Below are positions 12,100 to 16,982 of a stretch of 64,000 nt of DNA, in pieces. Below the pieces are notes generated by a model that was not told where the DNA came from, did not search any database, and saw only the letters and a program-made list of their open reading frames with translations. A program made the position numbers and the translations under genes. The stretch covers positions 1,054,001 through 1,118,000 of the forward strand of contig ML978129.1 of the NCBI GenBank assembly GCA_010015805.1, given 5' to 3'. Position 1 is the stretch's first letter. Every line of letters starts with the position of its first letter. The stretch comes from Rhizodiscina lignyota (taxonomy: Eukaryota).

Positions 12100-12729
12100 T
12101 CACTCTTCCCTTGGTGCGCCCTCAACAACGAAAAATCGCCCCACTTTTCGTTTCGCACTACCCAAAACGTCACAATCCTCTGCATTCTTGATACCCTCAT
12201 CCTGGATCCGTCTAGGCCGCCTCCTTATCCTCTTGTGATGGTTGCCCACAATCTCTTCCTGATCTAATGCATCCTGCATCTCAGCCATTCCTAACGTCCT
12301 CTCTTTGTCCCCGCGCTCTGATTCATCCCGCAAACTACGCAGAGGCTCTACTCCAGTAGTATCGATGCTCTGAATTGACCGCACGAAGTGTAATTGGGAT
12401 GAAAGAGTTTGGAGCATACGCGCTTCTTCGGCCTCGTCTTGTGGAGCTGGGAGTGCAGAAAGTCGGAGGAGATGGTGCAGTTGTTTGGACGTGATTTCTG
12501 GGGTCGTAGGTGCTGATGATTCTTGCGGCGTGGTATTCGTCGAATCATTTGAGGGAGGCAGGAGTGAGCGGACAGACCATGTCGGCTTCGAAAGGAGAGC
12601 TCCTAGTTTCTCCTGGGAGAGGCCCGAACTGGACCGGCATTGTGTAAATGTGACGTGCAAGCGTGAAGTTCTGCTCATAATCGATTTAGGAGCACGCGGG
12701 CAGCAAAGACGCGCTGCACAGATAGCCAT
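12100..12729 (-). CDS. Mitochondrial Glu-tRNA(Gln) amidotransferase GatC/GatF-like subunit
   Basis: Arg/Ser-rich presequence; PTWSVRSLL; LHHLLRLSALP; QLHFVRSIQSIDTTGVEPL; C-terminal GRFFVV. Confidence 0.75.
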   Translation of the reverse strand: MAICAARLCCPRAPKSIMSRTSRLHVTFTQCRSSSGLSQEKLGALLSKPTWSVRSLLPPSNDSTNTTPQESSAPTTPEITSKQLHHLLRLSALPAPQDEAEEARMLQTLSSQLHFVRSIQSIDTTGVEPLRSLRDESERGDKERTLGMAEMQDALDQEEIVGNHHKRIRRRPRRIQDEGIKNAEDCDVLGSAKRKVGRFFVVEGAPREE

Positions 12730-13124: not shown

Positions 13125-15909
13125 TTATAGTCCAGCAGCGCGCATAAGCCCATATCCGAGTGTAATAACCACCATGAACGTGAGAATACTTGCTGGAACG
13201 CCTCTTGTAATGAAATGTTTGACACTAAGATATCTTTGACCGGTTTGGCTGTCCTCCATCATAATGGCCGCTGTAGTGACAAGGTCAGCACCGGCGATTC
13301 AGATTCAATCAACTCAGGAATGAGCACTTACTCATGTTCGGGAATCCGCTTGTAGGCAGACCCATAGCGGCAGAGCACATTAGTACACTGCCCATGACCA
13401 GCAAGTTAGGGTGAGGTTCCTTCATGCCCTGACCAACTTGTGCGACCAATGGTAACACGATGAGCGCAGCAACCGTGTGGCTGATGAACGTCGCGACCAC
13501 CAGAATGAGCGCACAGAATACAACCAGCACGCCGTATAAGCTAAAGCCTTCAACCTTCTCGGTGATGCTCCCAGCAATGGTGTGAAGAAGACCAGAACTA
13601 TTGACTGCTTTGCCCAAGGCGAGACCACCTGCTGCGAGAATGATGATGGTCCACAAGAAATTGTTGAAGTCTTCTTTCGTCAATATGCCAGTACCGAAGA
13701 ACATCACGAGAGGGATAATAGCAATAACACCCATGTCGCCGAAGACCGGCTGGAGCTGGTGACTCGCGCACCACAGTACAATGGTGACGAGAGTGACGGC
13801 AGAGATAAACCACTGGATGCCTGTGAACTTATCCTTCATCGGGCGAATCGGCACGATCGTCGTATTCCGGCCAGGGTGGAGAGTGATCAATAACAGGACC
13901 CAGATCAGCAGAAGCGAGATGATGCAAATAGGCAATGCAATGAAGAACCAGGTACCCCAGTTTGGCTGCGGCTGCATGTTCTGCAGAGCAATAAGATTTT
14001 GTGGCGAGGCGATTGGTGAGGCAGCACCGCCTATATTTGAAGCAAGTGCAATGCCGAGCAGTAGTGCTTTCGACATGTTCGAATCCGCAGGAAGATTACG
14101 GAGGATAGGCTACGAATGGTCAGTACAGATTACCGAAGACTTTTAGATCGATCCGTACCTGGATGATGGAAAAGCATAAAACGGGCGCTGCTACGTTACT
14201 GATCCACATGCTCAGAAATGTAGCCACGAACATGTTTGTCACTAAAACAGTCCGCGGTCGAGTGCCGGCTTTGCTGAGTACAAACGTCGCCATCATTTTG
14301 GCGATGTTATACTTTGATAAAGCAGCTGCGATCGTAAAGCCACCCAAGAGAAGCATAATCACCGGGGTCCACATAGCCGCAAAGACATAGCCCGCGGCTG
14401 CTTTGGAATCCAGACGATAATGCGGTTTCTCATCGTGTCGAACAACGCGTAGGATAACGGCAAAGAATGGGACGAGAAGGGATGTGACAAAGAGCGGTAT
14501 AGCCTATCAACACAATTAGTCTCCCCCATCAAATAGCCAAATTGACTGCTTTCTCACCTCTGTTGCCCAAAGCAAGCTCACAAAAATGACGAGAGCGAGA
14601 CAATTCTGCTGTTCCGGTTTCTCCATAATGGGAACGAACAAAATAACAAGAAATACGGCGGTAATAACCAAAGTGAGGAAAAAGCTCGCGCTCGTCATCC
14701 ACTGTGGAAGTCGATACCGTCCAATTGGTGTCTGCAGCTCCTTCATGTCCATTCCGGTCTCGTCACCTTGTTTCCGGGGATCCGTATCGACGCCAACCAT
14801 TGGCCGACGAACACCCATGTTTGCAGCTTGAGTTCTTCTCTCAATCCCAATGAGTTCACGCCACACAGTGTTACGCTCCCAGACGACATGTTCACGGAGG
14901 TGCAGCCGCAGCTCTTGCTTCGCCACAGTCGTATCACCATGAGTTACTAACGTCGCATACAACTTCTCAATGTTGTCTATGTTACTGTTCAAGTGGTCCA
15001 TGGTCGATTTTTGGAAGGGCTGCGCTGTGCCCACATTATGGCTCATGTAGCTGTCTTTCAGGTTTCGGTCCAGGATCTTGTCGTACTTCTTGAGGACTTT
15101 CTTGAAGCCAGTGTAATTCAGTTGGATGAAGCTTCTCAGTTCGCAGAGATTGACATATAGACTGATTGCGCGTTTCTTCAGTGTGAGGCCTGATTCGTAC
15201 AGCGCTGAGAATGCCATGTCGTTGTAGTCGTCAAATGCAGCCGTGCTCTCTCTCCGTTTCGCCGACCGTGTCTCGTGACGATGCTCTTCGTTATGTTGAG
15301 TCTCCCAGGCCGCATTTCCTGCGACTGTCTGCCTCCGCGCCAATTGCGTTCTCTCATCCGCCTCGTCCTCGTCGTCGCTGTCGAGGTCTTCAGACTGCCT
15401 CTCCTGGCGGTGACTACTCATTGTACTTGTCCGATTCCTCTGGCCCTGGCCAAAGGCAAAGCTCTGAAATAGACTGCTTGACCTTGGCCTCCCCTTTACT
15501 GACCGTGTCGCAGTGGGGCTGTCTGGATTTCCATCTTGCTCTGCCTCGAAGTTGTGCTCATCCCTCAACAAGGCGTCCAGTTCGCCATATATTTCCAATT
15601 CCTTTAATTGGAAGAACGAGCAAATCTTCTCCAGCTCATGGTCTAGCGCATTGGAGAAGACTTTGTCCGGATTATCAATGGACGATCCTGCGAGGAGCGG
15701 GGAGGATTCGGCATCTTGAGTGGTAGTGGCTTCGCTTTGTCGGATTTGCTTCTCGAGCTGATATATCCTGTGCGACTCAGCAAATATACTCTCATGAAGA
15801 TGTCAAACTACCAATATGGAACATACAGTTTCTTGAGATTACTATAGGCGATGTAGTGGCTACTCCAGTCCGGCACAGCATTAAATTGGATGCTATGTGA
15901 GAACTTCAT
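13125..15909 (-). CDS. PHO91: SPX-domain low-affinity phosphate transporter (Pho87/Pho90/Pho91 family), multi-exon
   Basis: SPX start MKFSHSIQFNAVPDWSSHYIAYSNLKKL; LNYTGFKKVLKKYDK; transmembrane motifs SMWISNVAAP, ASNIGGAASPIASPQN and LPTSGFPNM. May have an upstream non-AUG extension (see findings). Confidence 0.9.
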
Positions 15910-16572
15910 CTCGTCCTCCTCTTGGAGCCGCGCGAGCTTCTCCTCCCGTTTCCTCGCTCTTCGTACTTCGCGAGGGTCGAGTAACTCAGATGGGCCTTCT
16001 CCTGGGTATAGCGACGCTTCGGGGAGTTCAAGGAGCTCGAATTCTTCGCCGACGGGTGCCTTTTGACTCTCTTTGGAGGAGTCCAGGGTGCAAGGCGCGT
16101 TGCGGCGAGCTGCGGGGCGTGACCCGATGTCCGCCGCGTGATGTTGAAGATGAAGTGAGAGAAGTGCTGCGCCTGTGCAGAATACGGTAAGCGACGTGGG
16201 ATCGCATTACTCGAGCATCTGCTGGTGGTGGGGTTGTCGATTTCGGGCGATCGATTTTAGTTGATTGTTGGCATGCGGACTTGCAGATGGGCGGGAGCCT
16301 ATGAGGTGTCGAGGGGCCAAAGCTGAAAGGACGCGTATGGGATGGGCATCAAAGCCGGGGCGGTCTTCGAAACAACTGTACAGAACCCAGGGAAGTTTTG
16401 TATCTTGTAGTATTTTGATATATACAATAGTGGAGTAAGATTTGACTGGGAACATATGTTGTCCCTTCTGAAACGCCACACCAATGCGTCCCAATGCCCA
16501 AACGCCTCAAAATGCTCAATGTATGCTGTGCCTAGTAACACTCAATTATAGCCTCTAGCTCCAGTAAATGAC

Positions 16573-16982
16573 TTATTTTCCCCTTCTTGCTGTTGCCGGA
16601 ATTTCTCCGCCTCTCTCTTCGATTTCCTTTATGATTTGCTCCTTCTTCCAGTCCGCAAGACGCTTTTGCTTGAAGTATGTGACCTGCGAAAGTCCATCAA
16701 ATGTGAGCGACATGCTACCCATAAGTCACGTATCTGTAGATGTGGATTACGTACCCAACTCTGTGCACAGTTTTGCTCGAAACCTTTCTCTTCCTTCGGG
16801 CAGTTCTGTGATGCGAGTTTGGCGTCCTTCACCGGATCAATGATATTTGACTTGTCCAGACACGCATAGTATGCATCCCGAGCTTCCCAACACTTTGCAC
16901 GTTCACTCCGGTCAGGAGCGATGAATCCTCCATCAGACGAAGCCGTGCGGGCTTGCTTTTCTGAACCCCATAACCATCCCAT
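16573..16982 (-). CDS. COA6: Cytochrome c oxidase assembly factor Coa6 (Cox6B-like)
   Basis: APDRSERAKCWEARDAYYACLD...C...C..SW|VTYFKQKR; CX9C-CX10C pattern; intron 16684-16754. Confidence 0.85.

Follow-up and report, generated by a model that had tools for sequence, protein, structure and literature searches.

A probable CUG-initiated extension with a candidate Snx3-retromer motif on the SPX phosphate transporter of Rhizodiscina lignyota

In Saccharomyces cerevisiae, the transporters Pho87, Pho90 and Pho91 are encoded by separate genes, whereas only one gene of this family was found in the genome of Rhizodiscina lignyota. Upstream of its SPX-initiating AUG, the reading frame stays open and contains a CTG codon in a favorable context. 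It was previously proposed that leaky non-AUG initiation at this CTG could yield a long vacuolar isoform and a short isoform localized or regulated differently (hereafter, the original prediction). In the present study, we asked whether the upstream frame is coding, which sorting signals each form would carry, and how the longer form would be initiated.

The transporter gene and its upstream open frame

The locus was analyzed in a 64-kb stretch of R. lignyota DNA, referred to as the window (assembly GCA_010015805.1, contig ML978129.1, positions 1,054,001-1,118,000 of the forward strand). All coordinates refer to the window, and the gene lies on its minus strand (Table 1). Judged by its sequence, the gene is an ordinary SPX-DASS low-affinity phosphate transporter of the Pho87/Pho90/Pho91 family. 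It has five exons (15909-15827, 15767-14558, 14503-14159, 14109-13332, and 13270-13125), and splicing at GT-AG introns of 49-61 nt gives an open frame of 853 amino acids from the AUG or 912 amino acids from the CUG. Pfam matches in exons 1-4 revealed the SPX-DASS architecture, with SPX followed by CitMHS/Na_sulph_symp, which is the same domain order as in the vacuolar Pho91 and the plasma-membrane Pho87 and Pho90 of S. cerevisiae. A relative of the window protein (P0007) matched yeast Pho90 with an E-value of 2.5e-176. A protein search and a family search, in which only the best candidates were scored, found one locus of this transporter family in the 33.4-Mb genome. In a FastTree tree, which was used solely to assign loci to classes, the transporter protein clustered with Dothideomycete references (27-row clade, support of 100). 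The neighbors on the same strand are ordinary, namely a COX6B-family gene upstream (16758-16982) and a Gta3/GatF-family gene downstream (12103-12729). The stretch was also found without differences in one assembly of a public run, which may be the window's own source.

Table 1. Features of the transporter locus in window coordinates
Feature	Position	Strand	Details
Upstream in-frame TAA, overlapping an out-of-frame ATG at 16207	16207..16209	-	Sequence
Pyrimidine-rich tract	16139..16165	-	Sequence only
Near-cognate start CTG (16086-16084), ACC-CTG-G	16083..16089	-	Equivalents in 26/26 Dothideomycete-like loci
N-terminal extension of 59 codons, CUG-initiated (inferred)	15910..16086	-	Open frame in 67/68 loci; pN/pS 0.44
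Phi-E-L-x-x-Phi, F16-E-L-L-E-L21, candidate Snx3-retromer signal	16024..16041	-	62/68 loci; Stx8 IEMxxM spacing
Basic, then acidic helix R39-E59, running into Met1 of SPX	15910..15972	-	Alignment consensus RxxKRxEKL
Exon 1 from the main AUG	15827..15909	-	ATG 15909-15907, GAG-ATG-A; SPX start MKFSH; Pfam SPX 60-87 of P0001
Exon 2	14558..15767	-	Remaining SPX domain and first transmembrane segment
ESSPLL acidic dileucine, SPX insert (residues 48-53 of the AUG form)	15692..15709	-	[DE]xxxL[LI] in 57/57
Exons 3-5, DASS-family transmembrane domain	13125..14503	-	Pfam CitMHS and Na_sulph_symp

Re-reading of the sequence confirmed the anatomy of the frame as originally predicted: 99 open codons separate the in-frame TAA from the main ATG, no in-frame ATG occurs among them, and the CTG in its ACC-CTG-G context adds exactly 59 residues. 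The nearest ATGs in any frame, at 16207 and 16218, lie at least 121 nt upstream of the CTG. The pyrimidine-rich tract is presumably the transcription-start region, as general fungal promoter anatomy would make likely.

A search with the extension and exon 1 as the query yielded 943 proteins; among the 120 listed, many aligned across 85-100% of the query, and the aligned proteins came from Dothideo-, Leotio-, and Sordariomycetes as well as other classes. Because this list is biased towards proteins with extensions, the loci were re-sampled using a pattern for SPX exon 1 only, and at least 113 metagenome loci were fetched. With the window included, 107 of 114 stretches had at least 180 nt of upstream sequence, and the other 7 were dropped. 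Dereplication left 75 stretches including the window; the other 74 consisted of 68 Pezizomycotina-like loci and 6 distant loci (<50% identity). It was observed that the frame was open for at least 45 codons in 67 of the 68 Pezizomycotina-like loci, compared with 10 and 30 for the other two frames. In 20 close pairs, two of which belong to a lineage without the extension, pN/pS was 0.44 in frame versus 1.09 and 1.06 out of frame. In addition, out-of-frame ATGs were depleted near the gene (12 of 68 loci in the proximal 150 nt versus 135 of 164 distal windows). Indels in multiples of three, however, accounted for only 8 of 16 in the proximal 140 nt versus 7 of 36 further upstream, which is a weak test. 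On this comparative evidence, the extension is a real, deeply conserved non-AUG coding stretch.

Outside this group, long open frames were also present in three of the six distant loci. The extension profile gave no credible match in the five distant loci tested, and the distant, yeast-like loci begin at the main AUG, without a motif-bearing extension. Within the Pezizomycotina-like clade, one lineage (L002, L061, L097, and L112) has only four open codons before the AUG; in L002, there is a branch-site-like CTAAC as well as a CAG two bases before the AUG. No credible match to the extension profile was detected upstream of the AUG in L002 or L061, and this group represents either a loss of the extension or a paralogue.

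Database models of the gene are often fused to the upstream gene. Among the 120 proteins listed, 9 carry tryptophan synthase domains (PF00290), 3 carry PF10366, which we take to be Vps39, and 1 carries an ABC domain. Such models probably arose from gene finders splicing the AUG-less coding stretch onto a neighbor.

Candidate sorting motifs in the extension and in the SPX insert

Alignment of the extensions revealed a Phi-E-L-x-x-Phi motif, which was present in frame in 62 of the 68 loci and in none in either of the other frames (0 and 0), using a short pattern that was set after the relatives were seen. Positions 0, +1, +2, and +5 are conserved, and positions +3 and +4 are variable. In the motif columns (n = 66, from rows chosen with the same pattern), the first residue was I in 32, F in 16, and Y in 11 rows, E followed in 62 and L in all 66, and position +5 was L in 41, Y in 18, and F in 7. 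Among the 62 motif matches, 27 begin with F, Y, or W and 29 with I, and 24 fit the strictly aliphatic Stx8 pattern. E or D occupies position -2 in 36 of 66 loci. In 64 of 66 loci, 31-58 codons separate the motif from the AUG. The motif is followed by the basic helix, which leads into Met1. In L004 and L031, the motif (IELDEF and LELADF) lies 101-106 codons upstream of the AUG, and a common WAEALRRR block is found where the basic helix usually stands. In L035, the CUG is present and a clear motif is absent. Regarding the setting of the motif, residues 1-25 of the AlphaFold2 model of a relative (L011) had pLDDT values below 50, no secondary structure was predicted up to residue 30, and the first membrane segment is more than 400 residues from the motif.

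Several sorting signals described in fungi resemble this motif. In Schizosaccharomyces pombe, the I, E, M, and +5 M of the Stx8 Snx3-retromer signal IEMeaM are all essential, and Stx8 signal mutants reach the vacuole surface (PMC8041195). S. cerevisiae Neo1 uses FEM, which fits the Y/F-x-Phi consensus, and mutated Neo1 is found at the vacuolar rim (PMC5449152). A fungal Kex2 peptide binds Vps26 near Snx3 (bioRxiv 2020.11.28.401588). Like Stx8 IEMxxM, Neo1 FEM, and the aromatic-E-aromatic signals of Kex2/Ear1 (PMC8041195 and PMC5449152), the extension motif has a hydrophobic-E-L/M core and a hydrophobic residue at +5. It also shares with Snx3-retromer cargo signals the acidic flanks and a position in a disordered cytosolic segment, distant from the first transmembrane helix, but differs from these cargoes in having L rather than M at +2 and Y or F at +5 in 25 of 66 loci. 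Unlike them, it would be isoform-specific and non-AUG-initiated, and its binding is predicted.

A HMMER search of PDB with the extension and exon 1 aligned the window motif to residues 81-98 of yeast Pho90 at -2.2 bits, which is not significant alone, and the likeness between Pho90 83-92 (EETIELRELP) and the window's EEFELLELP is a resemblance rather than the outcome of a homology test. In Pho90, the look-alike lies in the SPX insert, whereas here the motif precedes SPX and the insert holds a dileucine. In prokaryotic genome contigs, no match to a Pho87/Pho90-type exon was found. An Atg8-interacting motif, which has the form W/F/Y-x-x-L/I/V, was also considered and dropped because position +3 is mostly Q, A, V, R, E, D, or S.

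The last 25 residues of the extension contain a median of 7 R and K. A helix spanned residues 43-67 in the AlphaFold2 model of L011, and the first SPX residues had pLDDT values below 50 in L011 models both with and without the extension. A Foldseek search with the model confirmed the SPX fold and nothing more.

The R. lignyota genome encodes Snx3, Vps26, and Vps35. A complex was predicted from extension residues 1-45, a Vps35 fragment of this genome, and Vps26 (P0381) and Snx3 (P0309) from two related Dothideomycetes. The predicted complex scored 0.61 versus 0.01 for the best of the controls, among which no motif mutant was included. In the calibration, which did not extend to peptides, 51 of 78 solved pairs attained the mark for this score, as did 2 of 108 mismatched pairs. 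The runs shared at least 50% of contacts, and the partner pLDDT was at least 49. Extension residues 13-24 and 27 were predicted to contact Vps26 residues 162-173 and 279-285 and Snx3 residue 120; in the best contacts, F16, E17, L18, E20, and L21 faced Vps26 163-166, 170, and 280-285, and F16 faced Snx3 120. A similar complex has already been solved (PDB 5F0L, with a DMT1-II peptide), and the prediction may reflect memory. Because of this precedent and because peptides are outside the calibration, the prediction shows likeness, not binding. Taking the conserved motif and the model together, we consider it likely that the extension is recognized by Snx3-retromer.

Alternatively, the CUG extension could be translated and act by other means: the motif could bind another factor, such as the COPII Sec24 di-acidic site, exomer, or an endocytic adaptor, or the basic helix could alter the control of SPX by inositol pyrophosphates, and the isoforms may then share a compartment. 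Conservation of the helix nearly reaches that of the motif, with K50 present in at least 90% of 63 rows. In the L011 model, the helix continues into Met1-Phe3, and N-terminal additions are described as disturbing the trafficking of yeast Pho91 (PMC12668673). The acidic residues that often precede the motif also recall di-acidic ER-export signals, but position -2 is not invariant, whereas positions 0, +1, +2, and +5 are, which is the Stx8 pattern. Moreover, the modeled retromer complex scored above its controls, and the models lend no support to an effect on SPX, since its first helix is unresolved with and without the extension. We therefore regard action by such other means as rather unlikely.

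The original prediction had read EEFELL (16047-16030) as an acidic dileucine through which AP-3 would send the CUG form to the vacuole, with the AUG form going elsewhere. The window sequence itself does match [DE]xxxL[LI], but the match occurs in only 5 of 68 extensions, and no more than 6 of the 66 motif loci have L or I directly behind E-L; a conserved AP-3 dileucine in the extension was thus not borne out. By contrast, the AUG form contains a canonical dileucine in its SPX insert. [DE]xxxL[LI] was found there in 57 of 57 Pezizomycotina-like loci in which the insert was recovered (11 of 68 were not recovered), with P before LL/LI in 47 of them, and also in three of four recovered distant loci. 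The SPX-insert loop was modeled with lower confidence by AlphaFold2. Since ESSPLL lies downstream of the AUG, it is common to both isoforms. In the available portion of PMC12668673, untagged yeast Pho91 co-enriches with vacuoles and is said to take the AP-3 route (citing Eising et al. 2022). Given the internal dileucine and this vacuolar route of Pho91, the AUG form is by analogy likely to be the vacuolar form, delivered via AP-3. The extension motif, in turn, is of the Snx3-retromer type, which leads away from the vacuole in known cargoes, so the direction of sorting is probably reversed. Most likely, the vacuolar signal had been placed on the wrong isoform, and a long form that is vacuolar through an extension dileucine now appears very improbable.

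Probable start codons of the extension

An in-frame R-N-N-CTG-G (25 loci) or GTG-G (1 locus) was found 48-71 codons upstream in all 26 Dothideomycete-like loci (59 in the window). Three of these loci (L043, L053, and L082) have at most 128 nt downstream and were assigned to the class by hand; without them, the count is 23 of 23. The search demanded a purine at -3 and G at +4, and the unselected context positions were also biased, with C at -4 in 23 of 27, C at -5 in 16, and G at -6 in 15. A CTG in Kozak context was present within 30 codons upstream of the motif in 35 of 66 motif loci, versus 0 and 4 in the other frames. Other leucine codons occupied the same place far less often (TTG 2, CTC 7, CTT 5, CTA 3, and TTA 1 among the 66 motif loci), indicating that the codon, and not leucine, is conserved. 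Of the features in the original prediction, the open frame upstream of MKFSH was thus recovered in the Pezizomycotina-like loci and the near-cognate CUG/GUG start in the Dothideomycete-like ones, and the dileucine was not conserved.

In-frame AUGs were found in ten loci. Nine of them lie within 104 codons, and all nine have a pyrimidine at -3, against a background of 921 of 1980 (47%); these nine loci correspond to about six independent lineages. The tenth AUG is 175 codons away and has A at -3. All 68 loci carry a purine at -3 of the main AUG. With all nine substitute AUGs weak and the main AUG strong throughout, leakiness of the upstream start itself seems to be under selection.

In 12 of 21 Sordario-/Leotiomycete-like loci (L013, L015, L024, L026, L044, L052, L070, L083, L085, L086, L089, and L094), an in-frame AUA, AUU, or AUC with A at -3 is located 27 nt (10 loci) or 24 nt (2 loci) before CCCUCCUCU. 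This element is able to pair over all 9 bases with AGAGGAGGG, which follows 33-72 nt further on. Changes opposite U in the 9-bp helix are A/G only, and L086 shows a double compensatory change. The CCCUCCUCU/AGAGGAGGG pair looks like a conserved RNA helix that would promote the use of a weak start located 74-120 codons before the AUG. That different lineages keep different weak starts argues that both products are wanted. A stimulatory hairpin behind the CUG was not found: the segment 16165-15900 of the window folds at a z of -1.05, and the mean z in 26-27 Dothideomycete-like loci was -0.44 to +0.30 at all ten offsets.

Two further observations concern the start in relatives. Two full-length proteins of the sister clade to the window, P0025 and P0036, have V-D as their first residues, which stand 57 and 54 residues ahead of MKF, where the window has CTG-GAC, and a GUG start is likely in both. 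L011 is an intron-less contig of 3,389 nt, probably a transcript, in which the CTG, the motif, and an 869-codon ORF lie in one frame. An out-of-frame ATG also follows the CTG by 14 nt in L011, 178 nt ahead of the main AUG, and could reduce initiation at the latter in this species.

The extension might instead be encoded from an upstream AUG exon spliced into the frame, in which case a non-AUG start would be unneeded in R. lignyota. Acceptor-like AG sites are present at 16173 and 16167, and 19 formal AUG-exon splices keep the frame, but all 19 have non-consensus donors (GTATAT, GTCCGC, and GTATTC). A CTRAY branch site was found in none of the 19, although this argument is weakened by the lack of a perfect one in the real intron 1 as well. 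The CTG codon and its context are, moreover, fixed across the Dothideomycete-like class, and the intron-less L011 contig has no in-frame AUG upstream, all of which leaves a spliced AUG exon highly improbable. It is similarly hard to credit that the CUG form is the sole functional product and the AUG an internal methionine: the extension is indeed kept in nearly all Pezizomycotina-like loci, but the purine at -3 of the AUG, the AUG-depleted leader, and the invariably weak context of substitute upstream AUGs are only sensible if the downstream AUG is used, and the distant yeast-like loci start there.

From these sequence comparisons, leaky initiation at CUG 16086 is highly probable, and the gene very probably makes a second, longer protein from this codon. 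The conserved CUG-initiated extension with leaky scanning to the AUG, as originally predicted, was supported by the open frame in 67 of 68 loci and the near-cognate starts in 26 of 26.

Two proposed forms of one transporter

In the explanation that we favor, scanning ribosomes would initiate inefficiently at CUG 16086, and those leaking past it would start at the strong AUG 15909. The AUG form would be abundant, with SPX at its very start, and its internal dileucine would direct it, as with yeast Pho91, along the AP-3 route to the vacuole. The CUG form would be minor; its disordered segment with Phi-E-L-x-x-Phi would bind the Vps26-Snx3 cargo groove of retromer, and the extension helix would serve as a spacer into SPX. 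The CUG form would thereby be retrieved from endosomes and cycle through the late Golgi and probably the plasma membrane, not ending in the vacuole. Based on sequence, modeling, and analogy, we hold this whole explanation, with the long form in a Golgi-endosome-surface circuit beside a vacuolar short form, to be moderately probable, and a non-vacuolar steady state of the long form has a little better than an even chance. The earlier idea of two isoforms from a single gene, probably sorted differently, is retained, consistent with the one family match in the genome.

The long form also retains the dileucine, so AP-3 could deliver it to the vacuole before retromer acts. A further counterpoint to the surface model is that most known cargoes of this motif type (Stx8, Neo1, Kex2, and Ste13) are Golgi/endosome residents. 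Snx3-retromer keeps the Fet3-Ftr1 transporter at the plasma membrane via the Golgi (PMC2064116). The surface transporters Pho87 and Pho90 undergo endocytosis when phosphate is limiting (PMC7381174), and overexpressed Pho90 from which the first 375 residues were removed still localizes to the plasma membrane (PMC2710535). As the truncated Pho90 has lost the similar motif and still reaches the surface, the motif is dispensable for surface delivery there.

The closest working analogy is mammalian DMT1, likewise one transporter gene with the motif on one of two isoforms. Only DMT1-II, with the SNX3-retromer motif, recycles, and DMT1-I goes to a lytic compartment. The DMT1 isoforms differ in alternative C-terminal exons, whereas the transporter described here would differ in an N-terminal extension from a CUG. 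With regard to the start, the extension resembles those of Neurospora cpc-1 in Pezizomycotina, which, as described in PMC5487733, share the clade range, a conserved CUG/AUU/ACG in good context, branch-specific codon identity, purifying selection, and a start that is unresolved in database models. According to the same report, cpc-1 is a soluble transcription factor with uORF control, whereas here a candidate trafficking signal is placed on a polytopic transporter. Conserved near-cognate extensions are thus known in Pezizomycotina.

In the literature searched, which covered few subscription journals, neither an extended isoform of Pho87/Pho91 nor Pho87/Pho90 acting as retromer cargo was described, and no function was given for the Pho90 motif. 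The searches also turned up no non-AUG extension adding an endosomal recycling signal to a polytopic transporter before a normally N-terminal domain. Soluble fungal enzymes are known to acquire mitochondrial or peroxisomal signals through non-AUG extensions.

More tentatively, and with the balance somewhat against it, filamentous ascomycetes may run both low-affinity phosphate routes from one gene, with the CUG:AUG ratio setting the share between the surface (Pho87/Pho90) and the vacuole (Pho91). Start-codon stringency would then be a regulated switch in phosphate homeostasis, operating through the CUG in Dothideomycetes, AUA/AUU with a fixed RNA helix in Sordario-/Leotiomycetes, and weak AUGs elsewhere, and the yeast Pho90 motif would be an unrecognized Snx3-retromer signal. 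The extension would also account for the many database models with odd N-termini or fused to neighbors. If true, our explanation would place a retromer cargo within phosphate homeostasis and show how filamentous fungi can manage with one Pho87/90/91-family gene, and it would make the similar stretch of yeast Pho90 a candidate retromer motif.
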